Shown: piece by piece, positions 7,859-53,416 of the stretch
Layout: each line of letters begins with the position of its first letter
Numbering within the stretch: the first letter of the stretch is position 1
Assembly: GCA_963707305.1 (NCBI GenBank)
Contig: CAVPPZ010000024.1
Location: forward strand, 12,457 to 76,456
Source of the DNA: an uncultured Candidatus Rokubacteria bacterium
Lineage (GTDB): Bacteria; Methylomirabilota; Methylomirabilia; Rokubacteriales; CSP1-6
Direction of reading: 5' to 3'
DNA length: 64,000 nucleotides
Notes under the pieces: model-generated
What the model saw: the letters and a program-made list of their open reading frames with translations, nothing else
What the model was told of the DNA's origin: nothing
The model's database searches: none
Program-made: the position numbers and the translations under genes

Positions 7859-7887
7859 CCCCGCGACCCGTAACGGAGGACCGATCG

Positions 7888-18481: not shown

Positions 18482-20609
18482 GCTCGCTCCAGGATGAGGT
18501 TCGTGACGGCGTCCACGCGGGCCCGGAAGCCCGGGCGCGACGAGGATGGTGGCGTCCTCCTGATCCACGACCGCGGGCCCGTCGAACGTCATGCCGGGCG
18601 CGAGCCGCTCGCGCGCGTAGCACGGCGTGGTGACGAAGCCGGCGCCACGCTGGTACACGGGACGTTCGCCGACCTGGGCGCTGGCAGCGTCACCGCCGGC
18701 GCCGGGGCGGCGCCGACGCGGCGCGCTGGGGGAGCTGGCCGATCGCGGTGACGCGCAGGTTCACCAGCTCGATCGCGCGCGTTCGGCAGATCGTACGAGT
18801 AGAGCCGGCGATGCTCGGCGTGGAAGCGCTCGGCGACCTGCGCGACGTTGATGCCGATGAGAAATGGGGGGCTTGGGGGGTGAGTCGCTCACGCCCCCAA
18901 TTTCGGTGGGTGAGTCGCTCACGCCCCCAATTCCACATCAATCGTCAGCTCGAAGCTCTGGTGCTCGTAGCGCAGGTCGGCGGACCGCTCGAAGCGCTGG
19001 CGCTCGCGCGGCACGTGCTCGTCGTCGAGCCACGCGCGCGCTTGCGATTCCAGCTCCGCCCACGTCGCCTCGAGCGCCGGCACCGCGGCCGGATCGTCGA
19101 CCGCGTGGCGCTCCGGCGGTGCCCACCGTGCGGACGAACGTGGCGCGGATGTCGGTGTCGAGCAGCCCCCACGTGGAGAGCACGCCCGGCCGCGGCGGGA
19201 TCACGACGGCCGGAATGTCGAGCAGCTCCGCGAGCCGGCACGCGTGCAGCGGCCCGGCGCCGCCGAACGGCACCAGCGTGAAGCGTCGCGGATCGTGCCC
19301 GCGGCCGACCGACACGAGGCGGATCGCGCGCGCCATCGAGTTGTCGATGATCTCGACGATCCCGGCCGCCGCGTCCTCGACGCCGAGCCCGAGCGGCCGC
19401 GCGATCCGCTCCTCGATGGCCGCGCGCGCCGCCTTCTCGTCGAGCGGCACCTCGCCGCCGAGCAGCGCCGGGCTGGATGCGCGCGAGCACGAGATGCGCG
19501 TCGGTCACCGTCGGCTCGGTGCCGCCGCGTCCGTAGGCGACCGGTCCGGGCGCCGCGCCGGCGCTGCGCGGGCCGACGGTGAGCCGGCCGGCGCCGCTCG
19601 CCACCGCGATGCTGCCGCCGCCGGCGCCGATCGTGTGGATGTCGATCATCGGCAGCTTCAGCGGGAACGGCCCGATCGTGCCGTCCTTGGTGATCTCGGG
19701 CCGGCCGCCGCGCACGAGGCAGATGTCGGCGCTCGTGCCGCCCACGTCGATCGAGATGATGTCGTCGATGCCCGCCGCGCGCGCCACGCTCAGCGCGCCC
19801 ACGACGCCGGCCGCGGGCCCGGACAGCACGGTCTGCACGGGCTGGCGCACGCACGTCGCCGCGCTCGTGACGCCGCCGTCCGACTTCATGATGAGGAGCG
19901 GCGCGCGCACGCCCTCGGCGTCGAGCGCGTCGCGCAGCACGCTCATGTAGCGGCTCACCGGCGGCATGACGGCCGCGTTCAGCGCGGTGGCCATGGTGCG
20001 CTCGAACTCGCGGAACTGCGGCAGCACCTCGGACGAGAGCGACACGAGCAGGCCGGGATATTCCTCGCGCAGGATGGCGTGCATCCGCTGCTCGTGCGCC
20101 ATGTTCGCGTAGGCGTGGAGGAAGACCACGGCGACCGCGGGGACGCCGAGCTGCGCGAGCTGCCGCGCCACCGCGCGCGCCTCCGCCTCGTCGAGCGGCG
20201 TCAGCACGCGGCCCTCGTGGTCGAGGCGCTCGGTCACCTCGAACACGCGCTCGGGCGAGACCGGCCGCGCGGGCTTGCTCCAGCCGTACAGGTTGCCGTG
20301 GCGCGGGATGTCGTGACGCCCGATCTCCAGGACGTACTTGAAGCCGGCGGTGGTGACGAGCGCCGTCGGCGGCGTCTTGCCCTCGAGGATGGCGTTGGTG
20401 GCGGTGGTCGTGCCGTGGAGCACGCGGATCACGTCGGCGGGCCCGCGCTGCGCGAGCGCCAGCACCTTGCGGATGGCCGCGATGAAGCCGGCGGAGAGGT
20501 CTCCCGGCGTCGAGGGCGTCTTCGCCACCCAGCTCGCGCCGGTGGCCGCGTCGGCGAACGTCACGTCGGTGAACGTCCCGCCGACGTCGATGGCAAGCGT
20601 TCCACTCAT
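18478..20609 (-). CDS. Hydantoinase A / 5-oxoprolinase family protein (frameshifted; carries a repeat insertion)
   Basis: IDVGGTFTD, HGTTTATNA, SGPAAG, DVGGTS, GAGGGSIA and FGGAGPLHA motifs. Confidence 0.85.
18860..18940 (-). repeat. Structured repeat copy with a 30-bp-period tandem duplication, inside hydantoinase A
   Basis: Minus strand AATTGGGGGCGTGAGCGACTCACCC occurs twice, followed by CCCAAGCCCCCCATTTC. Confidence 0.75.
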
Positions 20610-20670: not shown

Positions 20671-21164
20671 ATGGACGCACGCGAACCGGAGATCGTGCCA
20701 CCGAAGTCCGGCGACGCCCCGGCAGACGCCCCGTCGCAGGCCCAGACCCAGGAGTTCATCCAGCAGCCCGCCAAGCTCATGCGCATTGCGTCCATGGTGA
20801 AGGAGCTGCTCGGTGAAGTCCGGCAATCCACGCTGGACGAGGCCGGGCGCAAACACCTGCGCCAGATCCACGAGCGCGCGTTCGCCGCCCTCCGCGAGAC
20901 GCTCTCCGAGGAGCTCCAGAGCGAGCTCCAGGCGCTGTCGTTGCCGCTCGAGGAGAACGCGACCCAGTCGGAGATCCGGATCGCGCAGGCGCAGCTCGTC
21001 GGCTGGCTCGAAGGGACTCTTCCAGGGCATCCAGGCCGCGCTGTGGACGCAGCACATGGCGGCGCGCGCGCAGCTCGAGGAGATGCATCGGCGGCGTGGG
21101 CTGCCCCCGGGGATGGAGCAGCAGTCCGACGACGGCCGGCGGCCGCCCGGCCACTACCTCGTGA
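20671..21164 (+). CDS. bpa: Bacterial proteasome activator Bpa/PafE (DUF2587), frameshift near 21015
   Basis: QPAKLMRIASMVKELL, EIRIAQAQLVGWLEGLFQGIQAAL..Q.MAARAQLEEM and PPGHYL closely follow the mycobacterial Bpa pattern, which ends GQYL. Confidence 0.85.
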
Positions 21165-22388: not shown

Positions 22389-23054
22389 TCAGCGCTCGAA
22401 CGTCTTTACATAGACCCCGGGCGAGCCCTGCGCGTGCGTCATGTGCTTGCGCATCGTCGCGCTGATCGGCACCGCGTTCTGCTGCGCCTTCCACGCGTCG
22501 GTCTCGGACACCTTCGGATTCTCGAACTCGTAGAACGTGAGGTAGGTCGGCTCACCGACCACCGCCCGGTAGCGCCGGCCGCGGATGACGCCCGGCACCT
22601 TCTCGTAGTTCGGCACGTAGATCGTGCTGTACCACTCGTTCCACTCGCGATCGACCTCCGCGGGCACGCCCATGCGGCCGAGCTGCAGCGCGGGCGCGAG
22701 CGTCGACTGCGCGACGGCCGGCGTGACCGCCTTCGGGTGGATCATCGAGTAGATGTTGCGGATGAAGGTGGTCGCGACCGCCTGCGGGCCGGTCTTCTTC
22801 GTCCACGGCGTCGGGTTGTTCGAGACCTTCTTGTAGGCCTCGCTCTCCATCACCGCCGGGTTCTCCAGCTCGTACACGGCGAGGTGCTTCGGGCCGCCCT
22901 TCACCGCTTCGTAGCGCGCGGCGCTGAGGAAGCCGGGCACGGAGAGGCGCTCCGCGAGGTGCTCCTCGTTGTACCAGCGGTTGAACTCGGGTTCCTTGTC
23001 CGCGGGGACGTCGCACCAGACCATCAAGAGTCCGGTCCCACGCTTGTTCGCCAT
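22389..23054 (-). CDS. Tandem dimeric alpha-beta barrel protein (EthD/DUF4286-like)
   Basis: Two repeats of EFNRWYNEEH...VPGF..A.RY...LAVYE; own ATG (MANKRGTG). Confidence 0.7.
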   Translation of the reverse strand: MANKRGTGLLMVWCDVPADKEPEFNRWYNEEHLAERLSVPGFLSAARYEAVKGGPKHLAVYELENPAVMESEAYKKVSNNPTPWTKKTGPQAVATTFIRNIYSMIHPKAVTPAVAQSTLAPALQLGRMGVPAEVDREWNEWYSTIYVPNYEKVPGVIRGRRYRAVVGEPTYLTFYEFENPKVSETDAWKAQQNAVPISATMRKHMTHAQGSPGVYVKTFER

Positions 23055-23056
23055 GG

Positions 23057-24291
23057 TCACACCTCGCCTGCGGGTTGGGCCGGTTGCGGGAATGCGCGGC
23101 TCGTCGGCGCGTTGGCTTCGAACGGGCTCCAGAGGCCGAGCTCCTTGCCGATCTCGCGCACGCGCGGGGAGCACCTCCTGGCCGAGCAGGCGGATGCAGC
23201 TGCGTGTGTCGGCCGTGCTCACGAAGCCGTCGGCCGCCCAGAAGCCCATGATGGACGGCCGCGTCTCCTCGAGCAGCCGGCGGATCTTCGGGATCACGGT
23301 CTTCGGCGTGCCGGCGATGATCTGCTGGTTCTGGATCTGGTCCTCGAAGGCGGCGCCGCGCGGGTTGGAGCGGCGGCCCACCGCGTACTCGACGAACGCC
23401 GTGCGGTACGACGGCGAGAAGTAGCCCGACGGGCTCGACCACACCGGGTGCGCGAGCCCCGTGAACTCGCCCTGCATCCACATGAACTGCCGGGCGTTCG
23501 CCAGCGCCTTCTCCTCGGTCTCGGCCACGTGGCAGCGCTGGAGGTAGCCGCGGAACTCCGGCCCGCCGGTGTGGCCGTTCTCCTGCGCGACCTTGTCGTA
23601 CGTCTCCCAGATCTTCTTGGTGGCCTCGATCTCGGTGCTGAGCGCGATGTAGGGATAGCCCTTCTGCGCCGCCCAGATGATCGTCTCCTTCGACAGCACG
23701 CCGGGGATCCACACGCGCGGGTGCGGCTTCTGCAGCGGCAGCGCCCACGGGTTCACCACGCGGTGCTGGTAGTGCGTGCCCTCGTAGCGGAACGGCCCTT
23801 CCTGCGTCCACGTCGCGCACGATGAGGTCGTGCGCCTCCTCGAACCGCTCGCGGTTGAACGCGGGGTTCACGCCGGTGGCGAGCTGCTCCTGGCCGCCGC
23901 CGCGCACGAAGCCGGAGACGAGGCGGCCCTTCGACACCATGTCGATCATCGCCAGCTCTTCGGCGAGCCGCACCGGGTTGTCGGCGAGCGGCAGCGGGTT
24001 GCCGAGCAGCACGATCTTCACGCGCTTGGTCATGGCGGCGAGGATCGAGGCGAACACGTTGCACTTGGCCTGCATGCAGAACGGCGCGTTGTGGTGCTCG
24101 TTGAGCATGATGCCGTCGAAGCCGACGTCCTCCGCCAGCTTGTAGTGCTCGAGGTACTCGTTGTAGAGGCGGCTGCCCGCGACGGGGTCGAAGTGCTTGT
24201 TGGAGAACATCAGCGCGGTCGCCCCGTAGTCGAGGCCGGCCTGCGCGTCGTACGCCGACATGGGCTGCTCGGTGAAGTACATCAGGTGCAT
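23057..24291 (-). CDS. Luciferase-like flavin monooxygenase (LLM), frameshifted
   Basis: GFDGIMLNEHH, PVRLAEELAMID, SKGRLVSGFVRG and PLQKPHP motifs. Confidence 0.85.
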
Positions 24292-24293
24292 GG

Positions 24294-25074
24294 CTAGAAC
24301 CCTCCGATCAGGCGGGCGAGCTGCTCGGGCTTTTCCATCTCCACGAAGTGGCCGGCGTCGTCGATCACCTCGAGCGTCGCGTTCCGGAGCGCCTTCACGT
24401 AGCGCTCGCCGCACTCGAGCGGCACGACGCGATCCTTGCGCCCCCACACGACGAGCGCCGGAGTGGCGACGCCGCCGAGCAGGTGCGGGAGGCTCGCGTT
24501 GTACATGTACGGCTTCCACGCGATGCGGAACGTCATCTCGCGGTTCAGATCCCACTGCTCGAGCGTCTTCGTCGGCGTCTCGGCGCCGATAGAGCCGCTC
24601 GAAGAGCGGTCTGATCGGCGAAGCCGCAGGCGCACGTAGTCGATGTAGGAGAGCAGCGCCTGGTCCGCGATCTCGCCGCGCTCGGGCTTGAGGCCCATCG
24701 CGCCGACGAGGACGAGCTTCGCGAACCCGCGCGGCGCCATGGTCGCCATCTCGGCGGCGATCCAGCCGCCGAACCCGAGGCCGACGAGCGTGACGTCGGT
24801 GAGGCCCCTTCTCCGCGATCAGCGCCTGGTAGACCACGGCGATGTCGCGCACGTTGCGCATCCAGGACGGGCCGCGCGGACTTGTCGTAGCCGGGATGCG
24901 AGGGCACCAGCACGCGTGTGCCGCTCGCGCGAGCGCGTCGTAGAAGGGCAGGCGCTCGAGGGTGCCGATGTCGTGGTGGAGGACGAGCACGGGCGTTCCG
25001 GATCCGGAACGCGCGACGTGCAGGGGGCCGCTGGCGAGCGGGACGGTCTCGGAGGTCCAGGTGATGTCAGCCAT
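24294..25074 (-). CDS. Alpha/beta-hydrolase fold protein lacking the nucleophile Ser (frameshifted)
   Basis: PSHPGY, LVGLGFGGWIAAEMA, PALVVWGRKD and AGHFVEMEKP. Confidence 0.75.
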
Positions 25075-28376: not shown

Positions 28377-28697
28377 TCAGCCGGCGTGCCGGGCCAGGAC
28401 GCTCTGCAGCGTCGTCCTGGGCACCGCGCCGACCACCCGGTCGACCACCGTCCCGTTCTTGACGATCAGGATCGTGGGGATGGACCGGATCTCGTAGCGT
28501 GCCGCGAGCGCGGAGTTCTCGTCGACGTTCACTTTCATCAACGTCACGCGACCCCCGGACGCCGCCGCGATCTCCTCGAGCACCGGCGCGATCATGCGGC
28601 ACGGCCCGCACCACTCGGCCCAGAAATCGACCATCACGAGGCCCTGACTGGCCAGGAGGGCCTCGTCGAACGTCTGCTCGGTCAGCGGCATGGTCAT
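28377..28697 (-). CDS. trxA: Thioredoxin
   Basis: DFWAEWCGPC and IRSIPT. Confidence 0.95.
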   Translation of the reverse strand: MTMPLTEQTFDEALLASQGLVMVDFWAEWCGPCRMIAPVLEEIAAASGGRVTLMKVNVDENSALAARYEIRSIPTILIVKNGTVVDRVVGAVPRTTLQSVLARHAG

Positions 28698-28754: not shown

Positions 28755-31700
28755 TCAGCGCTCGCAGTTCTTCGCGTCGGCGCCCTCGTCGCGGCACTCG
28801 TCCTGGCCCGGGCCGCCGTCGATCCGATCGTCGTCCGGCCCGCCCTCGATCACGTCGTCGCCCGCCTGGCCCTTGAGGAAGTCGCGGCCAGGGCCCCCCT
28901 GCATGACGTCGTTCCCCGGGCCTCCTTCGACCGTGTCGTTTCCGTCACCGCCGAGCACGTAGTCGTTGCCACCGTGGGTCTTGATGATGTCGTTCCCGGG
29001 CCCGCCGTCGATCATGTCGTGGCCCGAGCCGCCATCGATGACGTCGTCGCCGTCCCCGCCGCAGATCACGTCGTTGCCACCGTTGCCGGCGATCCGATCG
29101 TTGCCCGGGGTGCCGACGATCACGTCGTCGCCGGGCGTGCCGCGGAGCTGGCCACGGAACCGCTTGCCGTTGTCGGGACCACCGACGATCACGCCGTCGC
29201 GCACGAAGATCGTGGCCGGCCGCTCGAAACAGATCGGGAGACCGGGAGCCCGCACGACCGCGAGCACGTTGTCGAAGTCCACCGACGCGCCGTCGAACAC
29301 GGCCAGCTCGAGGACGTACGAGCCGACGACATCGGGGGTGAACCTGGACTGCGCCTGCTCGGCGTCCGCGATCTGGCCGTTGCTCAGACCGCTGCCCGCG
29401 GGGAGCGACACGAACCGCCAGCGGTACGTCAACGGCGCCGGCGCTCCGTCCGGATCCGCGCTCGCCGAGCCATCGAGGGTCACCGCCGCACCGGCGACGG
29501 CTTCGACGTTCGGGCCGGCATTGGCGTTGGGCGTGACGTTCCCCGCCTGCGCCGTCACGATCACCTCGTCGTCGGAGAAGGCCGCGCCGTCGCCCACGCG
29601 CAGCGCGATCCGGTAATCGCCCGCGACGTCGGGGATGAAGCTGGGCTGCGCCTGGTCGGCGCCGGTCAGGCTCCCGCTCGTGATCTGGCTTCCCGCGGGC
29701 ACCCCCACGACGGTCCACGCGAAGGTCAGCGCGGCGGGACCGGCGTCCGGATCCACGCTGGCGCGCCCGTCGAGCGTGGCGGAGACGTTGACGGCCACGT
29801 TACGGCCCGGGCCGGCATGCGCGATGGGCGGAATGTTGGTCGCGAACGCGCGCACCGTCACCAGGCTCGGGTCGCTCGACGCCGCCTGGTCGCGGACCAC
29901 GAGCTTCAGTACGTAGGCGCCTGACACGTCGGGCACGAACGACGGATCCGGGCTCGTGCGTCCGGTGATCGCCGCGGTCGTCAGAGCGCTGCCGGAGGGC
30001 ACGCTCTCGAACGACCACTCGTAGGTGATCAGGTCGCTGTCGCGATCGAAGGAATCGCTGCCGTCGAGCGTGGCCGGCGTCCCCGTCGCCACGTTCCGGT
30101 CGTGCCCGGCGACGGCCACCGGCGTCGTGTTCACCACCTGGATCAGCACTTCGTCGGTGACTGACGCCACTCCGTCGCTCACCGTCAGCCGAAGCACGTA
30201 GTCGCCGCGGACATCCGGCTCGAACGACGGTTGGGCCGTGGCCGCCCCGTTGATCTCGGCATCGTTCAGCGCGCTACCGGAAGGTATCGACACGAACGTC
30301 CACGCGAAGGTCAGTGGCTGCGGCGCTCCGTCCGGATCCTGGCTGCTCGAGCCGTCGAGCGCGACCACGGTCCCGAACGGAACCTCCTGGTCGGGACCGG
30401 CATCGGCGATGGGCGGCGTGTTCGACGACTGGCTCTGCAACGTCGCCGTCGCCTCGGCGGTCACGCTCTGGTTGGTCAGTGACTGGATGCGGACCGTCAC
30501 CGTTCCCTGCGCGGGGGCTTGAAGCGTCGCGTTCAGCACGAGCGCCGCTCCCCCGAGACCCGGAATGCGGAAGAGCGGAATGCGCTGGGTCGCGACGCCG
30601 TCGAGATCCGCGAGGGTTGCCGCGATGGGGCCGGACGTGCCGACGATGGTCGCCTGGTAGCTGTCTTCCGTGTTTCCGGTGCTCTTCACCTGCAGGAGGA
30701 ATGCGGCGCCACCCGGCACGGGGAGGATGACGACCGCAGGAGCGAAGCTGGCCGCAACACCAGCCGTTTCGGCGATGGTGACCTGCACGGTCGCACTCGC
30801 CTTGACCGCGGTGTTCGTGCGGGCCGTCGCCGCGCCCGTGAGGTCGAGCGAGCCCGGTGTCGCGAAGCCGATCGATCCCACGTTCACCGCAACGATCTGC
30901 GACGCGCCTGAGGCCAGCGTCACGCTGTTCGCGCCGAGCGTCGATGCCACCGCCGCGGGCCCGCCGACGCTCAGATCGAACGTCTGCGCCACCGCGCCGG
31001 TGTTTGTCACCGTCATCTGGAATGCAGAACCGGGCGGACCGGCTGGCGGATCGAGCGCGATGGTCACTCCGAGTGCCGCCACGCTCACGATGCCCGACGC
31101 CTCGGCGAAGACCGCCGGGTCCGTGATGGAGGTGGCGCTGGCCGAGATGCCCACGTCTCCCACGGCCGTGCCGGGCGGAGGCACCACCGCGATCTGGACC
31201 TCGCTGAAGTTGCCGACGCCGGGGGGCACGGTGACGGAGATCGGCGTGGCGCTGGTCGTGAATCCGTTCGGCGCCGCCACGCTGATCGCATACGTGTCTT
31301 CGAGGCTGCCCACGTTCGTCACCCGGAGTGTGAAGGTCGCGGGTGTTCCCTGTCCCGCGGTCGCCTGCCCGGGCGTGAGGCTCACCACCACGCCACGCAC
31401 GTCTCCATCCGGCACCACGGGCTCGCCGGCGAGCACGACACTTCCGAGCACCGAGGCCTCGATGCCGAGCGCGTGCGCGTTCACCGCGAAGCCGTACTCG
31501 CCGAGCGCGGCGAGCGGCTCCGTGCGCAGCGTCAGCGAAAGCTGCTGGGTGCTCCCCGCCGGCACCGTGACGTGACTCAGGATCGTCACGAGCTCCGGGG
31601 CCACGCCCTCGACCGTGAGGTCGTACTCGACGGTGGACGTCGACGGATTCTTCACGAGGACCGTATAGCTCGCGACCTCGCCCGGACGGACCGTACGCGT

Positions 31701-34700
31701 CGCCGGAGCGAGCGCGAGCACCTGCTCGGCCAGGACGGGGAGCGGGGCCAGCGGAATCCGTCCCTCGGTTCCGGCGCTTTCGAAGTCGACGGTCGTGTCG
31801 AGCGTCACGTCGCGGGTCTCGCCCGGCTGCAGGTTCGCGACCAGCTCCTGCCAGGTAAAGGCGAGACTGGTGGCGCCCGCGACCAGCGCACGCCGCCACA
31901 CCAGGGTGTCGAACTGCGCGCCGGCCACGATCTCGTCGGGCTCGTCGCTGAAGGAGTTCGGCACGATGGTGACGCCCGTGTTCTTCGGGATCTGCACCTG
32001 CGCGGTCACGGGGATGACGCCGACGGCGCCCAGGCGGAAGATGGAGAAGCCGGCCGCGCTCGTCCCATAGACGATGTCGCCATCGACGGCCGCGATGACC
32101 GTCTCGATGGGCAGATCCGCCTGGCTCACGATCGGGTTCTGGGGATCGCGCACATCGATGAGCAGCACCTGGGGCGGGTCCCCGATGGCCCCCAGGCTCG
32201 ACGCGATGAACAGCCCGTTGCCGACGCGCTCCATGCGGTTCAGGCCCCGCGCTCGCCGGTTCAGCTCCCGCGTGGTGATCAGCGCCGGCTGGCGTGGCGA
32301 TTCGTGAGATCGAGCGTGGCGACGATGATGTTGCCGGTCATCCCGAGGTCCTGCTGGAAGTCGCCCCAGCCGCCCGTGGATCCCAGCGCGACGCCCACCG
32401 TCCCGTCCTTCGCCAGCGACATCAGATGCACGGTGCCGGAATCTGCAGCTCCCCCGCCGCGACGATCGACATCTGGGCGGGGTTGGCGATGTCGATCACC
32501 CGGATGCGTCCCACGCCCACGTGCGCGTCGGTGCCTTGCACGGTCGTCGAGCCCATCAGCAGGGTGGTCGGATCGGCGAGCACGGATTGCCAGTTGTTGT
32601 TGGGGCCTCCGCGGGCGAGACACCCGAACAGATTGCGGATTGGCCCATCGAAGATCACGCCGGCAAACGCCGGCGCCGCGGGGTTGGTGATGTCGAACGC
32701 CGCGAGGTCACCGTGGTGCTCGAACACGTCGTGGTTGGCGAGGAAGAAGCAGAAGCCCTGCGTCGGCGTGAGCACGGTGGACCCGGCCAGCACGAGGTCG
32801 ACCGCGAAGAAGAAGTCCGCCGTGGCGGGCGTGGCGCTGAGGAGCTGGGGCGCGGTGGGATTCGCGATGGAGTACACCCGGAGCTGCAGGGTGATGTTGC
32901 CGTTCACCTGGGTGCGGACGATGAGCAGATCGCCGGACACCTTGCACGCGGTCAAGCCGCTGCTGACGATCTCGCCGGCGCCGAAGCTGCCCTGGACGAC
33001 GGGGTTCTCGGGATCGCTCACGTCGACGATCTGGATACCGTTGGGTCCGCAGAAATAGCCGATGGTGCCCTTGAGCGCCACGGTGTGGGCGGAGCCCGCC
33101 ACCTGCGCGATCTGCGCGAACTGGGTGGACAGCGGCACCTGGCTGTCGATCTTCAGCGTCGTGCTGACCGTGCGCGTCCCGGCGGGACGATCTCGGGATT
33201 GACGGTGATGCTGGCCGTCACCGGCGTCCCGACCATGAAGCTGCCGGTGCCCGTGGCGCCGGGAATCGCGGCGCCGCCGGCGTTCTTCACGGTCACGTCG
33301 ACCGTGTAGGTCCCGTTCGCGAATCCCGTCGTGTTCAGCGTGCCCAGATTGACGGTGACGAGCGACGCGAGCACGCCCAGCTCGAATTGCGACGACGAGG
33401 CCTGATGGACGACGTGCCGTTCGCGTCTTTCACCACGAAGTCGATCACGGCCTGGCGGACCTGGTTGACGGCGTTCAGGAGACGCGCGGACAGCGTGTGC
33501 GTCGTGCCCGCCGGCGCGAACGGAGGCGTCGCGGTCACGTTGACGACGGAGACGAGCTCGGTGCGTGCGGTGAGCGCGCCGCTGACGGTCGCGCTGAGCT
33601 CGGGCGCGGGCGTGGGTGTGATCCGCACGTTGAACCCGACGGGCACGAGCGCGTCGTGGAGGTCTGGGTGAGCGTGACGCCGAGATTCGCGGACGCTTCA
33701 CCCGGCGTGAGCGTCACCGAGGGCGCGCTGAGCTGGCTCGTGACGCTGGCCGGCAGGCCCTCGACGCTGAGCTGGTAGGTCGTCGTCTCGCTCCCGAGAT
33801 TCTGGACGGAGAGCTGGAAGCTCACCGGGACCTGCGGCGAGGCGACGTGACTATTCGGCTCGAGGCGCGCGGCGAAGCGATGCCGGCCCGACGACGCAGC
33901 CACGTTCCCCACTTCGTTCAGCACACCGTCGAGCGGGGCGAGATCGCCCGCCAGGGACTGCGGCGTCCCATTCGCGACCGCGGCGCGGACGTTCTGGAGC
34001 TGGATGACGAGCGTGGCAAAGGCGGGGTCCGTGAGCCGCGCGATGAGCTGATCGATCTCGGAGAGCACGCGCGCGCGGAGCACGGCGTCGCCCGGCGCGT
34101 TGAAGAGATCGGTGATGGCGAGCCCGAGGTCTTGCAGGGCGTCGGCGATCGCGCCCTGGCCGGCGCTGCGCGCGGCGAGGACGCGTCGATGGCCGACTGC
34201 GCGCTCGGCACGACGACCTGCACCGCGATCTGCACCGTCTCGGTGAAGGGCAACGGTCCGAACGAGGCGGTGATGTCGGCCGTCAGCAGAGAGTTGAGCG
34301 GCACCGTTCCGTCGGGGTCAACGTGAGCGACTGCTCGACGGACTGACCCGGATTCAGCGCCACGGAAGACGTGAGGCCTTGCAGCGCGAGACCACTCGGC
34401 GTGCTGCCGCCAGGGCGATCTGCTCCGCGACGTTCCCGACGGCGGTGAGCGAGAGCGTGGATGACACCGGCGTGCCCGGCGGCGAGCCGAACGAGTCCGG
34501 CGTGACGGAGACGAGGACGCCGTGCACCTCCGGCAGGATGAACGACTCGGTGTCGCTCGCGGTGACGGCCGCGTTGGTCGTGCTCGTGATCTGCACGCTG
34601 AATGCGGCGGGCGTGCCGGGAGGTGGGAGCTGGCCGACTGGCTGGAGATAGACGCCGACCTCCGCCGTCTCCCCGGCGGGAATCTGGATCTGGGTGTCAC

Positions 34701-37700
34701 TCGCGAGAATCGTGAAGCCGGCCGGAACCGTCGGGAACGTGAGGCCGAAGGTGTCCGTGGGACCGAGGTTGCGGATGACCGCTCGGAACGCCGAGGGGAC
34801 CTGGGCACCGCCGAACGGCACGGTGAACAGCGGATCGGGATCGATCCGGACGATCACAGCCGGCGCCGTGGCGCCGACCGTGACCACGAGATCGGCCTGG
34901 GCGACGAGATCGGGCCGCGACTTCGATCGTGCCGTGACGCTGAGGGGCACGACGCCGCTCGAGAGACCGGCCGCCGGCGTGACGCTGATCACGCCGCTCG
35001 CGTTGACGGTCACCGTCCATTCGTCCGGCGCTTTGACATCGACGATGTACGTGTCGGCCAGACTCGTGACGATGGTGACGGTCGAATTCCCCGGAGCGGT
35101 CCGATTGGCGGAGACGGCGGCGGGACTCGCACTCGCGCGGAGCACATGCTCCGTCGCTCCGTCGATGGCGACGGTGTCGGTGCTCACCCCCGCCGTCACG
35201 TCGATCGCTCCGGTGAAGCCACCGAGCGTGAATCCGGTCGTGAGGGGAAGCGGCGTTCCGCCGACCGTGAGATTGCCGGATCCGGGGCCCGACCGAGACG
35301 ACGCCGGCGAACGAGGTCCACGCTGGCCGTGCCCGCAAAGCTCGGCGACGTGCTCGGGCCGGCGCCCGTCAGCGTGGCGGCGGTCGTGGTGATGGTGTAC
35401 GTGCCGGCGGGAAGCGGCGTCCCGTTGATCGCGAGGCCGTCCGTCGTGACCCGGAGACTCGTGGCCCCTGACAGCGTCGCGGTGTAGGTGTCCCAGCGGC
35501 CGCCGACGCCGAGGTCCGTGGTGGCCGGGGCGTAGAAGCCCAGGTCGCCTCGTCCCTGCACAGCGATGGCGCCCGTGGTGGCCTCGACCGCGGCGCCGGC
35601 CGGCGCCTGGAGCGTGATCGCTCCCGCTCCCACCGGCGCGCCGTTGCCGTCGACCACGGAGCCGTTCGCGATCGTCATGGAATTCGCGACGAAGCTGCTC
35701 GTCCCGGCGCTGCTCCACGCGGCCTGCATCTGACCCGTCACCGCGGTGCTCGCGGACGTGACGCGATCCCTGGACGGTCCCGGCCGTTGCCGTCGCGGCG
35801 ACGGGCACCTCGGCCCGGGCGACGTTTGGTTCGGACGGCACGGGTGGCGTCGGATCGAACGCGTAACCCGAGAGGGGCGGATCGTTCGAGAAGTTCTGGC
35901 CGATCGTCACCCCGAGGATGTACCCGGCCCCGAACGCCGTCCGCGGCGGGACCTTCTTCTTGCTGTCCTCGAGGAACTGCTTGACGATGCTGATCGCGTT
36001 CTTCCACGCGAGGATCTTGCACACCAGGAAGTCCACGGCCTGGCAGGCGTCGCTGTTCGTGATGGCGGCGCCGAGGATGAAGACGATCGCCTTCGCGAAC
36101 GTCGTCGTCTGCATCCCGACCATCATGCCGAGGGCGAAGTCGTTGGCCCGCGCAAGATAGGTGATTAAGGTCTTGGTCGCGGCGGACTCGACGCTGCCCT
36201 GGTGGCCGCCGTCGTCGAGCACGCCGATGGTGTCGCCCGTGGTCAGATCGGACTCGTACCATCCGACGCGCTGCCGTCCGTCGATCTCGACGCCGCGCAC
36301 CGGGACGAGCGCCATGCGGTTCTGGACCACCGCGTCGGCGATGAGGACCTTGGCGTCGGCCGGAATGTCGAGCGCGTCGAGCTGGGCGACGTTGGCGGCC
36401 GTGATCACGACGGTCTCGATCCCTTGCGCGGCCACCAGCTCGAAGATCCGGTGCGCGCTCAGCGGCGTCGTCGTGTGCCAGCCCGTCGACCTGCGGCGGC
36501 GTGCCGACCGCGAGCGTCTCGAACTTGGTGTCCGTGTAGCCGCGGATCAGATTGAAGCTGATCGGCACCACCGCGTTCTGGCCGGGCGCCGCCAGCGCGC
36601 GGATGTCGTTCTTGCGCAGGTCGATCGCGAAGCTGAACGAGAGCAATCCGGCCGGCGAGAACTCCGCGCGCGTCTGGAAGATGCTGATCCGCGGGCTGTC
36701 GAAGTAGGCCACGACCTTCGTGGAGCGCGCCATGCCCGCCGTGAACTCGTCGGAGATCGAGGCGAACTCCAGCAGGCGCGATCGCCCCATCGCGACCATC
36801 GCCGTCTCGCATGACGTCGTTCGCGCGGGGCGCGAAGAGCGTCTGCGCCGGCCCGGGCGACGTCGCCGCCACCTGCGCCTGGAATTCGAGCGCGGCCTTC
36901 TGAAGCACGGCGAGCTGTGCCGTCGCGGAGGTGAGCACGCTCGGGTCGTACGGGCCCGGCATGATGCTGATGGTCGTGATGTCGAACGGGGAGACGAGGA
37001 ACGGCGCCTGCGGGTTGATGGTGGCGGCGCCGGTGCCGCCGTGACGGCGGGCGGCGATGCCGATCCGATCCGCGATCGTCCGCCGGTAGTTGCGCGTGGT
37101 GCCGTCGGGAGCCACCACGTCCAGCTCGAGGAAGAGGCCGGTGAGGATCTGGCTTCCGAGCGGGAAGTTCGTCAGGACTTCCTGGTAGTCCTGGCCCCGG
37201 ATGACACCGTCGCGAGACGGGTCGAGGGCGTTGCCGCCGACGACCATGTAGGGCGAATACGTGTTGGTGACGGCCGTGAAGATGGCGCCGATCCCGTTGC
37301 TCTCGACGATGTGGCCGATGGAGAGCGGCCGGCCCACGACCTCCACGGTCCGCACGACCTGATCGATCACCGGCGCGAGATCCTGCCCGGGGATGCCGAA
37401 GAGCGCGGTGGCCTGGGAGGTCAGCTCGCGCATCAGACGCACGACGACCTTGTGGCGCAGCTCGTCCGGCACCTCCGCGAACGTCTGGGTGGCCGTGGTC
37501 AGGACCTGGCCGATCTGCGCGCTCGCGAAGGTGGGGTCAGCGGCCTGGAACCCTCCGCCGCTGTCGAGCTCCACCCAGAAGTGGTCGCGCGCCTCGCCCA
37601 GCAGCTTGAGATCGTTCACCGGATCCGCGACCTGGGTCCCCGGCGGAACGAGCGCCACCGTGCGGAGCGCCGGAGGGAACATCGAGGCGATGAGCTGGCG

Positions 37701-38517
37701 CGCGAGCCCGTCAGGAAGCGTGCCCACGCGCGTAGCGGGCGGGAATGCCGGAGGCTCGGAGCAGCGCCACGAGGAGACTCGCGCGGTCGAGCGCGTTCCC
37801 CGCCTTGTTCCACAAGGTGCCGCGGGCGCCTCGCAGCGAGCCCGGGTAGGCGTGATAGCCGATCTCGTCGCGCACGAAGGTGAAGATCCGCGTGGCGTCG
37901 TACCCGAGCTCCGCGGCCTTCGCCAGCACGAAGGGGTCGGTCGTCTCGGCATCCAGCGTTGAACGCAGCAGGGCCTCGTCGACGGCGCCGGAACGGAGCG
38001 TCGCGGCCGATGTGCTCGCGCTGATCGCGCGCGCGTTGAGCGTGGCAAACGCCCGCGCTCCGTCGTCGATCTGGGTGGGGATGGGGTTCGGGACCGTGAC
38101 GGTGAGCTGGACCGTCGTGGCCGCGAACGGCGCGAGCGTCCCCAGGCTCCACGCCAGCTCTCCTGCCTTGCGATCCGGAAGGGGCGAGGCGCTCGTAACA
38201 CTGATGCCGGGGCGCAACGTCGTCGCGAGCAGCACGCCCGTGATGGGCGTCGCCTGTCGGTTGGCCACGACGTAGGTCACCGTGATGCGGTTGTTCAGGA
38301 CGGCGCCCGTCGTGGAGGGGGTCACGATTCGCGACACGGCAATGTCGGGCGCCAGCACGGTTGACGGCTGCGCGGCCGCCGGGCTGGGCTTCAGCGCGGC
38401 AAGCGGATCGAAGGGCAGCAGCTCAACGGGCGGGAGCAGCCCCACCAGGAGCGCGACGGCGAGCAGCCGGCCGACCAGAGGGAACCAGGGCACGCGCGAG
38501 CGGGTCGATCCAATCAT
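28755..38517 (-). CDS. Giant secreted multidomain protein (~3,200 aa, broken by about 10 indels): signal peptide, Ig-like domain, transglutaminase-like core, hydrophobic segment, Ig/beta-rich region, LVIVD-like propeller, 4 PKD-like repeats, RTX-like Ca-binding tail
   Basis: Contiguous same-strand ORF pieces from 38517 to 28755 with no evident intergenic gaps; GAGGAG RBS before the start; motifs GSLRGARGTLWNKAGNALDRASLLVALLRASGIPARY, DHFWVE, IVDVSDPENP, PIADAGPD..LDGS.S.DPDG and GGPGND repeats. Confidence 0.7.
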
Positions 38518-38723: not shown

Positions 38724-39803
38724 ATGAAGCGATCGAGCGGGCGCGACGTGTCGGCGGTGCTGGAGTTCCTGCGGGAGATCTATGCGCAGCCGGACGTGAA
38801 CGGCTTCGTCCAGCGAGCCGTCGATAGGTTACCGCGCCTCATCGCCGCCGACATGTCCTCGTTCAACGAGGTCGACCCGCGGACGGGGCACTACCGGACG
38901 GTCGTCACGCCGCCCGGGGCGGATCTCTTCCCGCACAGCGAGGAGATCTTCGAGCGCCACGTCCGCGACCATCCGTACGTCGTCAACGTCCGGCGATTCG
39001 AGGATGGCGAGGCCCACGCGCTCTCGGAGTTCGTGAGCCGGGCAGACTTTCGCCGCTCGGCGATCTACAACGAGTACTACCGGCACACGCGCACCGAGCA
39101 TCAACTGGCCATCGCCGTGCCCGGGGCGGGGTTCCAGGTGCGGGGATTCGCGCTCAACCGGGGGCGCCGCGATTTTTCGGCAGGGGAACGGCGCCTGCTC
39201 AGCGCGCTCGGCCCTCATCTCGTCCAGGCCCACCGCAACGCCGAGTTGCTGGCGAGCGCGGCCCGCCACGACGGCCCCGCCGACGGCGACCGGACGACGA
39301 CCGACGTGGAGGTGGTGCTCCTGTCGAGCGGCGGAACCGTGCAGTTCGCGACGCCGCGCGCCCGCTCGTGGCTCGCCTCGTACTTCGGCGGATCGCGCGC
39401 CCGCGACGGCCGCTTGCCCGGGACGCTGGCCGACTGGTTGAGCGCGCAGGCGTCCGCGCTCGAGGGCGGCGACGGTGTGCCGCCGCCGCGCCGGCCGTTC
39501 GTCGTGGGAAGCGAAGGCGCGCGACTCGAGATCCGGGTCGCGGAGTGGGGTCAGCGTGCCCTGCTCGTCCGCGAAAGCCGTCGGGCGTCGTCCACGGAGG
39601 TTCTCGTGGCGCTCGGGCTCAGCCCGCGCGAAGCGCAGGTGCTCGCGTGGGTGGCCGAAGGCAAGACGAACAGCGAGATCGGGATCATCCTGGGTGCGCG
39701 CCCGCGCACGGTCGCCAAGCATCTCGAGCGGATCTTCCGGAAGCTGGGCGTCGAGACGCGGACCGCCGCCGCCGCCTCGGTCCTGCATCGTCCGACCGTT
39801 TGA
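38724..39803 (+). CDS. LuxR-type HTH regulator with N-terminal GAF-like sensor
   Basis: GLSPREAQVLAWVAEGKTNSEIGIILG..RTVAKHLERIFRKLGV; ALNRGRRDFS in the sensor region; divergent from the giant gene. Confidence 0.88.
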   Translation: MKRSSGRDVSAVLEFLREIYAQPDVNGFVQRAVDRLPRLIAADMSSFNEVDPRTGHYRTVVTPPGADLFPHSEEIFERHVRDHPYVVNVRRFEDGEAHALSEFVSRADFRRSAIYNEYYRHTRTEHQLAIAVPGAGFQVRGFALNRGRRDFSAGERRLLSALGPHLVQAHRNAELLASAARHDGPADGDRTTTDVEVVLLSSGGTVQFATPRARSWLASYFGGSRARDGRLPGTLADWLSAQASALEGGDGVPPPRRPFVVGSEGARLEIRVAEWGQRALLVRESRRASSTEVLVALGLSPREAQVLAWVAEGKTNSEIGIILGARPRTVAKHLERIFRKLGVETRTAAAASVLHRPTV

Positions 39804-39922: not shown

Positions 39923-41330
39923 ATGACGCACACTGACTTGGCCGGACTCGCCGTGTCCACCACCTCGTCCGACGCCCTCTCCACCTACGAACGCGGGGTC
40001 GACCTGTTCCTGCGCTGGCGCGCCGGATCCATGGAGGCGCTGGACGCCGCGCAGAAAGCGGATCCGCGCTTCGCCCTGGCCGCGTGCACGCGGGCGTACA
40101 TCGCGTGGCGGATGGGACGCGTGGATCTCGCCGAGCCCGCCGCGCAGCAGGCGGTCGCGCTCGCGGACACCGCGCAGCACGAGCGCGAGCGCCGGCACGT
40201 CGAGGTGGTCGATGCCATGCGACGCGGCGAATCGGTCAGCGCCTGCCAGATGCTGGAGCGGCTCGCCGCCGACCATCCCACGGATCGCCTGGCGGTGCGC
40301 CTCGCGGGCCTGAACTGCATCACCCAGGGCAACTACCCGGGCGGCATCGACATCGCGCGGCGCAGTCTCGAGGCGAGCCCCGACGAGCCGCAGTACCTCA
40401 CGATGCTCGGCTTCTTCCTGGAGCAATCGGGCTACAACGACGAAGGGCTCGCGGTGAGCCTGCGCTCGCTCGCGAAGGATCCGACCAATCTCTACACGTA
40501 CCACGCGGTCGGGCACGCGTATCAGGCGCGCGGCGACTATGCGCAACACGCTGGAGACGTTCGAGCGCGCGGCCTCGCTGGAGCGCTACGCGCACGTCCT
40601 CTGGCACCTCGCGGAGGCGCACGCGATCCTCGGCGACGCGCGGATGACGCGCGACTACTGGGCCTCCACCACGCCGTCGCTGCCGCTGTACGAGCGCATC
40701 GAGCTCCTGTGGCGTCTCGAGGTGCTGCGTCACACGCGCACGGACGACGCGATCTGGCAGGACCTCGCCAGACAGGGCGAGCGCCTGCTCCAGCACGCCG
40801 AGTTCCTGACGACGTGGATGCACCACTGGCTCGGCGTCGCGTTCGCGCACGTCGGCGACTGGGACAAGGCCACGCGACAGCTCGAGCGGCTGCGCCGTCT
40901 GCCCGAAGGCCGCGCGGGCGGCCACTGGTCGACGCGGGGCGCGGCGTTGCTCGAGGGCGAGATGGCGATCATGCGGGGCGACGACGCCACCGCGGTGCGC
41001 ATGATGACGCCCGCCGTGGAGCAGCTCGACTCGATGGGCGGAGGGAGCCGCGAGCAGAAGGACATCTTCCGCGACGTGGTGCTCGAGCTGCACCGCCGGC
41101 TCGGTCACGTCGACGAGGTGATCGCGCGGGCGCAGCAGCGGCTGCTCGCGAACCCGCACCATCTCCAGTCGCTCGCGGCGCTGACCTGGGCCTACGAACG
41201 GAAGGGCGACGCCGCGCTCCAGCGGCAGGCCTGCCGCCAGCTCGTGCTGCGCGCGCAGGAGGTGAACGCGTCCGACGCGCCGGAAGTGCTGGCGGCGCGG
41301 AAGGTGCTCGGAAGGGAGAACGACCGATGA
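39923..41330 (+). CDS. TPR protein (TTC38-like), frameshift near 40540
   Basis: ADPRFALA, YHAVGH, HVLWHLA and MGGSREQKDIF; helical repeats. Confidence 0.7.
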
Positions 41331-48520: not shown

Positions 48521-49678
48521 TCAGACGCGCAGGGGGTCGATGCGGCCCGCGAGGGCGAGCAGGCTCTCGAAGAGGTAGTAGCTGCCGACGATGAACTCGC
48601 AGCGGTTCGCGCGGTCGTGGGGTCGCGCGTCGGTCCGCTTGTTGAAGCACGCCTCGGTCAGCATCCCGGGCACGCGCGCGTCGCCCGCATGCGTCGGCGT
48701 GAGATAGCGCTCCACCAGCGCGCGCGCCGTCGCGTCCGCGGCCTCGCCATAGCGCGCGCGGGCCGCGTCCGACGGCGCCACGCGGGAGAGCTTGAGCAGC
48801 GCGGCGAGCGCGATGGCGGTGGCCGCGGTGTCGCGCTCGGTGTGCGGGATCGCCGGATCGTCGAAGTCCCAGAAGGCCACGCGGTCCGGCGGCACGTGCG
48901 CGAGCCACCAGTCGGCGCCGCGCACGGCGGCGCCGATCCACGCGTCGCGCGAACGGTCGGCGAGCCAGCTCTGCGTCGAGAACAGCATGCCCCACGCCTG
49001 CGCGCGCCCCCACGTGCTCGTGTCGCTCACCCCCTTGTGGGTGTAGTGCCGGACGAGCGCGGCCGGTGACGGCGTCGAGCGAGCTCGACTGGATGAACGA
49101 GCCGTCGGGCCGGAGGTGCAGGCCGATGATGGTCTCGGCGTGGTGAGTCGCGACGTCGCGCAGCGTCGCGTCGCCCGTCACGCCGGCCGCCCAGAACAGG
49201 AACGGCGCGGCCTGGAGGCTGTCGATGCTGGTCTCGGTGTTCCCGACGTGCGCGCCCTCCTCGGCCTGGGCGCCGAGCGGGACGAGCTTCAGCGCCGGCG
49301 CGTAGAGCGGCACGAGGCTGCGCGCGGTGCGGAGCGCCGTCTCGCGAGGGCCGGCGGCGTCGTGGAGGATCGCGCCGAGCGCGGCGCCGTAGTAGACGGG
49401 GAACGACTTGAACACGGTCTGCGCGGCCACGCGGTCGCCGAGGCGCGCGAGCGCCGCGGCGCCGCCCACTCCCGGTAGCGCGCATCGCCCGTCGCCGTCG
49501 CGGCGAGCCAGAGCATGCCGATCCAGTAGCCGCCGGTCCAGTCACCGTCCGGCGTGGTCGTCCAGGCGCCGGTGTCCGTGTCGGCCCAGTGGGGCAGCCC
49601 GTCCCGCACGCGCGCCGCCGTGTCGTCGACGCGCGCGCGCATCCGCTCGATCGCCTCGCTCCACACACTCGCGGTCAT
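48521..49678 (-). CDS. Unsaturated glucuronyl hydrolase-like protein (GH88), frameshifted
   Basis: DWTGGYWIGMLW, IDSL, STWGRAQAWG, WDFD, DTAATAIA and YYLFESL. Confidence 0.75.
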
Positions 49679-49680
49679 GG

Positions 49681-51492: not shown

Positions 51493-51626
51493 GGTGGGCC
51501 TCTTGGCTGCCTCGGGCTCGTCGGCCACGCAGCATAGTCCGCCGGACGGTCGGGCTGTCAAGTGCGCGTGGCTCCGCATGAGACGCCGATGCGCTATGCT
51601 CCGCGACAACGGCGAGCGAGACGCGG

Positions 51627-53359: not shown

Positions 53360-53416
53360 CGTAGGCTGCAGGATCTCTGGCGAGATTCGTTCGGGCGCGT
53401 ACTAGAATCGTCTCAC

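Follow-up and report, generated by a model that had tools for sequence, protein, structure and literature searches.

A giant, frame-broken gene of a Rokubacteria bacterium and its probable product, a surface adhesin-like protein with a cysteine-less transglutaminase-like domain

The window analysed here is a stretch of 64,000 nucleotides from an uncultured Candidatus Rokubacteria bacterium. It contains about 9.8 kb of coding sequence that probably represents a single gene. The product, of about 3,240 residues, would be exported via an N-terminal signal and would act as an adhesin-like protein at the surface, and the frame breaks that divide the gene would be errors of the assembly. A single gene is the preferred reading because homologues are colinear over all of the breaks, because an intact metagenomic relative (P0113) exists, and because closed ORFs are found at homologous loci.

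The first-pass annotation of this DNA described the protein as a hybrid of a carrier and an adhesin. Its whole architecture is instead common to the members of a large, uncharacterised family.

The gene and its frame breaks

The minus-strand coding signal is unbroken from 38517 to 28755, with a third-position GC content of at least about 0.8 all along. The first-pass annotation had likewise noted some 9.8 kb of coding sequence on one strand. The gene starts with an ATG at 38517, with GAGGAG 8 nt upstream, and its stop codon occupies 28755-28757. Between 38517 and 32292 the frame shifts 13 times, so that the gene is divided into 14 segments and is not one ORF. The earlier claim of a single protein of about 3,200 aa thus holds for one ancestral gene, matched end to end by P0113 and L020, but not for one open reading frame. 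Reading through the breaks gives a conceptual product of 3,239 residues with an X at every break. Only the last 1,178 codons (32291-28758) form a long unbroken stretch.

Domains were called by Pfam profile search against curated cut-offs, with an NCBIfam scan in addition. The features are listed in the direction of transcription of the giant gene:

38724..39803, plus strand: GerE/LuxR-type regulator gene, divergent, 206 bp from the start of the giant gene
28755..38517, minus strand: whole giant gene, 14 frame segments and 13 breaks, homologues colinear across the breaks
38410..38517, minus strand: start and signal-like segment, Arg-rich start, hydrophobic core at residues 18-36
38074..38346, minus strand: borderline DUF11-like Ig domain, Pfam 24.2 bits (cut-off 24.6)
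37530..37908, minus strand: transglutaminase-like core, Transglut_core 41.6 bits against 23, split by break 1 (about 37725)
36196..37529, minus strand: family-specific region of beta-sandwich, long helical hairpin and alpha/beta domain (AlphaFold model of the Aquisphaera homologue), breaks 2 and 3
36196-36264, minus strand: GWYESDL...GHQG motif, end of the alpha/beta domain
35881..36195, minus strand: helical, moderately hydrophobic linker ending in a conserved DPP motif
33187..35762, minus strand: beta-rich/Ig-like region with one helical insert, breaks 5-10
31995..33186, minus strand: LVIVD beta-propeller, Pfam LVIVD 35.8 bits against 20.2, breaks 11 and 12
30525..31994, minus strand: Ig-like array (FixG_C, fn3_6-like; Pfam), FixG_C-type Ig 38.1 bits
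29361..30533, minus strand: PKD-like repeats, K319L-like PKD 112.8 bits, 3 Pfam-scored stretches
28791..29141, minus strand: RTX calcium-binding nonapeptide block, HemolysinCabind/RTX 110 bits, 5 stretches
28377..28697, minus strand: thioredoxin gene, about 55 nt downstream of the giant gene on the same strand

The breaks, whose positions are approximate, span 32292..37725 on the minus strand:

Breaks 1-4: 37725, 36828, 36478, 35763-35790
Breaks 5-8: 35290-35310, 34400-34407, 34305-34309, 34186
Breaks 9-13: 33662, 33417, 33187, 32435, 32292

Each of the 13 frame changes, all of which were tested, is crossed colinearly by homologues. P0113 is an intact metagenomic protein of 3,278 aa that aligns at 52% identity in one HSP over residues 29-3233, RTX tail included. 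It is present at its full 3,278 aa on 5 contigs, and in a single ORF it has the same Pfam order (Transglut_core 48.8 bits). The protein L020 (3,187 aa) aligns in one HSP over residues 59-3074, and L020, L015, L038, L025, L029 and L044 each give one HSP of 2,600-3,000 residues. Closed, colinear ORFs of 2,460-3,704 aa, these six included, occur at 14 of the 51 homologous loci, in other phyla. Four segments of the window protein cover profile positions 2-683 (the A3 core module, about 640 positions).

Judged from the assembled sequence, the 13 breaks most probably stem from small insertions and deletions made in the assembly and do not belong to the organism. This follows from the genome-wide excess of breaks, from the splitting of rpoC and of Pfam domains elsewhere, from the absence of stop codons and from the preserved third-position GC. 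The genome, which is 68% complete and in only 29 contigs, has 3,974 flagged breaks, which amounts to 0.83 per coding kb. Control stretches had 0.12 per coding kb, with 10 breaks over 84,033 bases. The giant gene carries 9 flagged breaks in 9.76 kb, and 30% of genome windows of the same size carry at least 9. The rpoC gene of the same genome is also split, and elsewhere in the window six Pfam domains are divided between neighbouring frames. The polishing that the first-pass annotation called for is therefore apt, since the breaks match this genome-wide excess.

Alternatively, the gene could be a true pseudogene, acquired or inherited, which is decaying by frameshifts and yields no full-length protein. 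All 13 breaks lie upstream of the last third or so of the gene, within its initial 6.2 kb (64%), which is improbable at a uniform rate (0.637^13, about 0.003) and is accounted for only by over-dispersion of breaks across the genome; 21% of 3.5-kb genome windows have no flagged break. Decay would also fit breaks that are unlinked to homopolymers, and a gene that is rare nearby: a 303-aa query found no match in 40 near relatives, and partial matches came from just 5 further genomes among 250 of the phylum, the unpublished G074 included. However, the density of breaks equals the average of the genome, where rpoC and many housekeeping domains are hit as well. The 14 corrected segments contain no in-frame stop in 3,226 codons, third-position GC is undamaged, and identity to P0113 extends over the full length with no degraded part. 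A pseudogene is thus considered unlikely.

Two specific causes of the breaks were considered. Homopolymer slippage is not supported, since runs of at least 4 nt occur in 4 of the 13 junction intervals, which is about the background rate and shows no preference for homopolymers. Programmed frameshifting or phase variation is rejected, as it does not agree with 13 breaks in both directions that have no common motif and arise at the background rate of the genome.

With a frame break about every 1.2 kb of coding sequence, genes of this assembly that appear 'split', 'fused' or 'pseudo' should be confirmed at the level of reads ahead of any interpretation.

The transglutaminase-like domain and the N-terminal module

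The first-pass annotation had proposed a pseudo-transglutaminase, and the domain indeed lacks the cysteine. The nucleophile site is an Ala (37792-37794), while the His (37581-37583) and Asp (37536-37538) are kept. In a profile alignment to 3isr, the Cys of 3isr lies opposite the Ala of the family; we take this Cys, from the family motif, to be the nucleophile of a Cys-His-Asp triad. Among the 172 of 200 family proteins that fit the motif pattern, Ala fills the site in 100 and Ser in 70, whereas Thr and Gly occur once each and Cys never. The His and Asp, which are H48 and D63 in the second segment, do not vary in the 11 rows of alignment A2 and hardly vary in A3, and the motif GSLRGARGTLW..GN[AS]LD is strongly conserved in the family.

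Fold searches used an AlphaFold model of the Aquisphaera homologue as a stand-in for the broken window protein. The nearest folds are peptidases and isopeptidases: 3isr (VIA Z 12.7, rmsd 3.2 over 144 residues; Foldseek E 6.8e-4), PeiW (Z 9.7) and LapG (4fgo; Z 9.0, rmsd 3.3, 124 residues). A sequence search of the PDB returned 3isr alone, and weakly (E 0.014 and 0.06).

These residues suggest that the domain is a Cys-less pseudo-enzyme throughout the family, and that its cleft would serve binding and not Cys-based catalysis. The kept His and Asp, together with the surrounding motif, could also mean a Cys-independent activity.

If so, the domain might be an enzyme after all, one that uses a different nucleophile or hydrolyses without Cys, and the stalk would do no more than hold it against its substrate, for instance a polymer. 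The conserved residues, the Ser found at the site in 70 of the 172 proteins and the kinship of the fold with 3isr, PeiW and LapG are in keeping with this. Yet in 100 of the 172, and in the giant protein of the window, the site is filled by Ala, a residue that is incapable of nucleophilic attack, and no member has a known activity; an enzymatic role is therefore judged improbable.

The putative pseudo-enzyme can be compared with several known proteins. It shares its fold, and the His and Asp, with the transglutaminase-like superfamily (PF01841), for example with 3isr, a putative cysteine protease of Cytophaga hutchinsonii. It differs in that Cys is replaced by Ala (Ala or Ser in the family) and in that the domain is embedded in a secreted protein of 3,240 residues. 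Active transglutaminase-like cysteine peptidases (LapG/BTLCP, PeiW/PeiP) likewise have the His and Asp but also the catalytic Cys that is absent here. LapG, a small enzyme of the periplasm, has the full Cys-His-Asp triad, whereas the domain of the window lacks the Cys and is part of the giant protein itself. Erythrocyte protein 4.2 is a catalytically inactive transglutaminase homologue with a Cys-to-Ala change that serves as a scaffold. It offers an analogy for a transglutaminase fold without a nucleophile, plausibly used for binding; the likeness is one of fold only, with a eukaryotic, cytoplasmic protein that gave a weak Foldseek row (7uzs, E 0.12).

The region that follows had been described as conserved and ending in GHQG, and the motif is indeed found at its end. 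No Pfam or NCBIfam model matches 36196..37529, and there is no NCBIfam model for the core, the NCBIfam matches being confined to the PKD and RTX parts and below cut-off. The N-terminal module of about 900 aa includes a confidently modelled domain without a clear PDB relative (AlphaFold, Aquisphaera homologue). The model of the domain ending in GHQ found nothing with Foldseek at E<=0.001. Its best VIA match, to STAS-type anti-sigma antagonists (Z 4.6 over 68-73 residues), is unconvincing. The lack of a convincing match does not make the fold new. The helical hairpin matched generic coiled coils only, and the ESM Atlas gave no usable match for P0008.

Beyond GHQG the earlier reading had placed a hydrophobic segment. 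One is present, but its hydrophobicity is just moderate, the mean over 19 residues never exceeding 1.47. At the same position several relatives have strongly hydrophobic helices, a pair or more, and in many members this second helical hairpin is membrane-like.

The N-terminal module could be a device, so far undescribed, by which giant stalk proteins are fixed in a diderm envelope and perhaps helped in their export. This is a speculation with a rather small chance of being correct. The device would consist of the Cys-less transglutaminase-like domain, the beta-sandwich, the long helical hairpin, the alpha/beta domain and the second helical hairpin. Its transglutaminase-like cleft would hold a ligand of the cell wall or envelope, and in Planctomycetota an ECF sigma factor and a Ser/Thr kinase encoded next to the gene would frequently activate it as a pair. 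The giant stalk proteins of the family carry no known sorting signal.

A different role for the same module was put forward in the first-pass annotation. In that proposal the N-terminal half is a carrier, and the protein is possibly a contact-dependent effector system under the control of the divergent LuxR-type regulator. Spelled out, release or delivery would take place at GHQG. A GerE/LuxR-type gene does lie at 38724, as described, and the region after GHQ varies among relatives, with strongly hydrophobic helices in some. However, the His of GHQ is not invariant, some rows having N or Y there. Scans with Pfam and NCBIfam found no toxin, effector, polymorphic-toxin-processing, Rhs/YD or Hint domain, nor any small gene resembling an immunity gene; the C-terminus is RTX and the next gene is thioredoxin. 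Contact-dependent and polymorphic toxin delivery proteins differ in this respect, as the scans revealed no C-terminal toxin, pre-toxin or adjacent immunity gene here. The variable parts of the family are binding-type domains. Control by LuxR fares no better, since the regulator is absent from all 51 homologous loci; at 13 of them a Ser/Thr kinase gene lies upstream in its place. TPR and thioredoxin neighbours are likewise conserved at none of the 51. Effector delivery is thus very improbable.

Stalk, tip and export

The domain content suggests that the protein is a Sec-exported, adhesin-like fibre of the surface or envelope. This reading is favoured because of the signal-like N-terminus, the Ig, LVIVD, PKD and RTX domains, the variable binding-type tips and the probable diderm host. 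The host is probably diderm because its genome has TolC-like genes and gave no match to WhiB.

The Sec-type signal claimed earlier is supported by a basic start followed by hydrophobic residues 18-36 (Kyte-Doolittle mean 2.14). The signal of P0113 is classical and ends in AHA. The Ig-like domain that follows is present, although its DUF11 score falls just short of the cut-off; relatives carry DUF11 or CARDB. Farther along, relatives have FixG_C-type Ig domains at the place equivalent to 33187..35762. The LVIVD-like propeller was correctly recognised; it has three strict motif matches, with more by eye in the translation, and stands at the same position in P0113. Four starts of PKD-like repeats can be seen by eye, a count that comes from the translation alone, but Pfam scores only 3. 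The GGxGxD repeats hold up as well, with 11 GxxGxD motifs, mostly 9 residues apart, in residues 3112-3220. About 14 residues after the last repeat the protein ends.

The order of parts would be a signal peptide, an Ig-like domain, the Cys-less transglutaminase-like domain, a beta-sandwich, a long helical hairpin, an alpha/beta domain ending in GHQ, and a helical linker, hydrophobic in some members, that leads to DPP. There would follow a long Ig-like stalk with the LVIVD propeller and PKD repeats, and then a lineage-specific tip, which in the window protein is a calcium-binding RTX beta-roll. Such a fibre, attached to the envelope or displayed at the surface, would have an extracellular binding target. 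Its conserved N-terminal module would form the base or anchor, the variable C-terminal tip would confer the specificity of binding, and calcium would stiffen the RTX end.

The RTX end raises another way of export. Type I RTX adhesins have an uncleaved C-terminal secretion signal, some tens of residues past the repeats, and a dedicated ABC transporter and membrane-fusion protein, usually encoded nearby. To our knowledge they have no N-terminal Sec signal. C-terminal type I secretion signals are poorly conserved.

The giant protein could be an adhesin of this kind, like LapA or SiiE, that leaves the cell C-terminus first and is retained by its N-terminal module as a plug in the outer-membrane channel. 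It has the C-terminal RTX block, the TolC-like genes in the genome and a big folded N-terminal module, whose transglutaminase-like fold resembles LapG (a likeness of fold only). Against this, the N-terminus is Sec-signal-like by hydropathy, a basic start and hydrophobic core that set it apart from Sec-signal-free type I RTX adhesins, with the AHA end in P0113, and little follows the last repeat. As weak evidence in a fragmented, incomplete genome, the best HlyD-type and LssB-type matches reach 71 bits against 208.65 and 291 against 693, and no such genes lie beside the giant gene. Of 200 family proteins, only 4 carry at least 5 GxxGxD motifs within the final 400 residues, and none of the 51 loci matches the RTX tail. 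Since the RTX tail is so rare, the conserved architecture is independent of type I export, and this route appears quite unlikely.

The preferred reading, a Sec-exported fibre, still has features in common with the giant RTX adhesins LapA, SiiE and MpIBP: great length, Ig-like repeats that form a stalk, calcium-binding nonapeptides at the C-terminus and a separate module at the N-terminus. It differs from them in its signal-like N-terminus, in having almost nothing past the repeats and in the absence of RTX from most members of the family.

By architecture, the protein also resembles the methanogen adhesin-like proteins, surface proteins that combine Ig-like stalk domains with a membrane anchor and a transglutaminase-like domain according to PMC11532034, which also cites SiiE and the ice-binding adhesin. 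These proteins differ in being archaeal and shorter, with the transglutaminase-like domain C-terminal and pseudomurein-binding repeats beside it (PMC11532034).

The family

At E<=1e-30 the family counts 1,957 cluster representatives. The best-scoring new ones have a median length of about 2,800 aa. The 51 loci in reference genomes belong mainly to Planctomycetota and Acidobacteriota. A metagenome scan with P0113 gave one locus, which is 41% identical, and none of the contigs on which P0113 itself is encoded. The C-terminal tips of the relatives vary and are of binding type, for instance PKD, FG-GAP, DUF4214 and BACON/TIG.

No curated model of the family was found in Pfam or NCBIfam, and no publication on it in a full-text search, whose coverage did not extend to subscription journals. 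The family is among the larger sets of giant bacterial proteins without an assigned function. Because it has a cultured carrier, Aquisphaera insulae JC669 (L025), that function can be tested.

Coding signal and homologues of the giant gene

The giant gene (28755..38517, minus strand) keeps high third-position GC from the ATG at 38517 to the stop codon at 28755-28757, and GAGGAG lies 8 nt 5' of the ATG. The frame carrying this high-GC3 signal switches repeatedly. Thus the coding signal is continuous, as the first-pass annotation had read it, but the region is not one ORF. A seven-state frame tracker combined with homologue-guided inspection divides the gene into 14 segments at 13 breaks. All 13 breaks fall between 37725 and 32292, the final 1,178 codons are unbroken, and all 14 segments are free of stop codons. 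Joining the segments with an X at each break gives a product of 3,239 residues.

Querying 5.8 billion proteins with the 303-residue second segment gave 66 relatives; they are 532-2,000 aa long, and most are 40-53% identical to it. By tblastn, all 13 of those tested are colinear with the giant gene through its frame changes. When one genome per species was scanned, 51 homologous loci emerged. By record title, 40 are from Planctomycetota, including the isolate Aquisphaera insulae JC669, and the remaining 11 are from Acidobacteriota, Nitrospirales, Binatia, Syntrophobacteraceae, a 'delta proteobacterium' and one further bacterium. Closed ORFs of 2,460-3,704 aa are present at 14 of the 51 loci; the others are cut by a contig end, shorter, or frame-broken themselves.

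The read-through protein aligns in a single HSP with loci L020 (residues 59-3074, 38% identity), L015 (57-2943), L038 (59-2975), L029 (55-2811), L025 from Aquisphaera (59-2677) and L044 (30-2685). When 1.84 billion representatives were searched with a profile, 9,697 matched at E<=1e-3, 6,285 at 1e-10 and 1,957 at 1e-30. The best 150 matches include 134 new proteins, 105 of at least 2,000 aa and 47 of at least 3,000 aa. The closest among the matches listed is P0113, a metagenomic protein of 3,278 aa, which aligns in one HSP (residues 29-3233, 52% identity) and agrees with the giant protein in the order of its Pfam domains, LVIVD, PKD and RTX among them. Its cluster has five members, all of 3,278 aa and each on one contig. 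The region is a single, family-typical giant gene, and we hold the single-gene part of the reading with high confidence.

Origin of the frame breaks

Indirect evidence points to assembly error as the source of the breaks. The genome assembly (G000) has 29 contigs, 5.6 Mb and a marker completeness of 68%. Its rpoC is broken in two, and one of the matches contains an internal stop; its rpoB is intact. Outside the giant gene, a Pfam scan covered 56 of the 72 high-GC3 segments in the window, the omitted 16 being short or overlapping longer ones. Six domains each straddle neighbouring segments that are read in different frames: Amidohydro_3, BPD_transp_1, Hydantoinase_B, Hydantoinase_A, Bac_luciferase and SBP_bac_5. 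The split ordinary genes are at these window coordinates:

7885-9595, split ordinary gene
12760-13665, split ordinary gene
17017-18460, split ordinary gene
19115-20594, split ordinary gene
22413-24294, split ordinary gene
49421-51534, split ordinary gene

The frame tracker flags a break when the frame switches on the same strand without a stop at the switch. Genome-wide it flags 3,974 switches, or 0.83 per kb of coding sequence. The identical script applied to six control stretches (118,642 bases) from two well-assembled genomes of the same order gave 10 flags in 84,033 coding bases, or 0.12 per kb, so the rate in G000 is about seven times that of the controls. In the giant gene 9 of the 13 breaks are flagged, or 0.92 per kb over 9.76 kb. 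Flags are over-dispersed in G000: at least nine occur in 30% of 9.76-kb intervals and in 13% of 6.2-kb intervals, and none in 21% of 3.5-kb intervals. Therefore, it is ordinary for this assembly that the breaks of the giant gene all cluster in its first 6.2 kb. The breaks show no homopolymer enrichment, with a run of at least four in 4 of the 13 junction intervals, near background.

A real pseudogene is an unlikely source of these breaks. Thirteen indels without any nonsense codon, at the density seen across the genome, fit assembly error better. Split or pseudo genes anywhere in this assembly should be confirmed at read level before interpretation.

Other irregular features in the window are as follows:

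39923-41327 (+), TPR-containing gene beyond the LuxR-type gene, with a frame change at ~40539
53414-53758 (+), MCP signalling domain piece
53938-54537 (+), dCache piece, downstream of the MCP piece

In chemoreceptors the usual order of dCache and MCP signalling domain is the reverse. The two pieces may belong to separate genes, or this may be a further assembly problem.

The transglutaminase-like module and the variable tips

Pfam confirms Transglut_core, LVIVD, PKD, RTX and FixG_C-type Ig domains in the giant protein. The domain list of the first-pass annotation stands for the transglutaminase core, LVIVD, PKD and RTX; its N-terminal Ig domain (DUF11) is only borderline.

At the catalytic-Cys position the family motif is G-N-[A/S]-L-D. 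Read by eye from the alignment printout, this site is Ala or Ser in 56 of 56 rows. Among 200 family proteins, 172 match the motif pattern (Ala 100, Ser 70, Thr 1, Gly 1, Cys 0); the other 28 do not, mostly because they are truncated. In a profile alignment the Cys of PDB 3isr lies opposite the family Ala. The His and Asp are retained. The transglutaminase-like domain of the giant protein lacks the Cys, and the protein falls outside the active transglutaminase-like peptidases.

The equivalent region of the Aquisphaera protein (714 residues) was modelled with AlphaFold from an alignment of 36 sequences (pLDDT 83, pTM 0.83). The model predicts a transglutaminase fold, a beta-sandwich and an antiparallel helical hairpin of ~80 residues, then an alpha/beta domain ending at the GHQ motif, followed by low-confidence helices. 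In structure searches the transglutaminase fold alone matched solved relatives (3isr, Z 12.7; TglA, 9.8; PeiW, 9.7; LapG, 9.0), with none for the other parts. The GHQ domain modelled separately (pLDDT 87) gave no convincing match in fold searches (best Z 4.6).

Downstream of GHQ is a variable helical region, which closes with a conserved DPP motif. Post-GHQ segments in L020, L015, L038, L044, L014 and L025 have Kyte-Doolittle means of 1.9-2.9, enough for membrane helices. Hydrophobicity in the window's protein is weaker, at most 1.47. L024 has one segment at 1.78, the nearest in L039 is earlier (1.64), and L030 and L032 have none that reaches the 1.6 threshold.

C-terminal tips also vary among relatives (PKD, FG-GAP, DUF4214, BACON/TIG). 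An RTX tail is rare: at least five GxxGxD occur in the last 400 residues of 4 of 200 family proteins, only P0113 among the 200 has a tail resembling that of the giant protein, and tblastn with this tail gave 0 matches in the 51 loci.

Planctomycetal members begin with a basic N-terminus and then an E-x-L-E-x-R-x-L-L motif, not a plain signal peptide, as judged from the consensus of family alignment A2 and the N-terminus of L025 (L025:3239-3600).

Neighbourhood and proposed role

The giant gene is single-copy in G000. The 303-aa query had no match in 40 relatives. Across 250 other genomes from the phylum, a profile search gave partial matches in 5, a count that includes the unpublished genome G074. 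The LuxR/GerE, TPR, thioredoxin and beta-lactamase-family neighbours have no counterparts adjoining the 51 loci; the sole neighbour-type match is a weak helix-turn-helix ~9 kb away at L023. Control by the divergent LuxR regulator, as first proposed, has no support, and neither has effector delivery.

The host is probably diderm, because TolC-like genes are present and WhiB has 0 matches. HlyD-type and LssB-type proteins gave no match at cut-off in G000; as the genome is fragmented, this carries little weight. A homologue of the bacterial proteasome activator (BPA, PF10759) lies at 20701-21009 (+) in this genome with TolC-like genes and no WhiB match.

A Hanks-type Ser/Thr kinase gene (Pkinase with TPR or WD40) is found upstream of the giant gene at 13 of the 51 loci (L024, L032, L037, L012, L026, L029, L031, L034, L045, L047, L052, L053, L062), at 90-1,340 bp in 10 of the 13. 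At three of these loci, L024, L032 and L037, the gene before the kinase, in the same orientation, encodes an ECF-type sigma factor. Because Planctomycetota commonly carry kinases, the adjacency may be chance.

The giant protein has a signal-like N-terminus, a stalk built from Ig-like, propeller and PKD domains, and a calcium-binding block at its end. It would be exported by Sec and attached via the conserved N-terminal module; the stalk would project, and the variable tip may bind a target. We consider this reading as a whole, from single gene to target-binding tip, somewhat more probable than its opposite. The protein is proposed to work most like giant Ig/PKD/RTX adhesins, and it probably falls outside the type I RTX adhesins.

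Scans of Pfam and NCBIfam gave no curated model for the family, structure searches gave no solved relative beyond the transglutaminase fold, and full-text literature searches, seen as titles and abstracts, gave no paper on it. The giant gene therefore adds another member to a large family, present in databases but unstudied.
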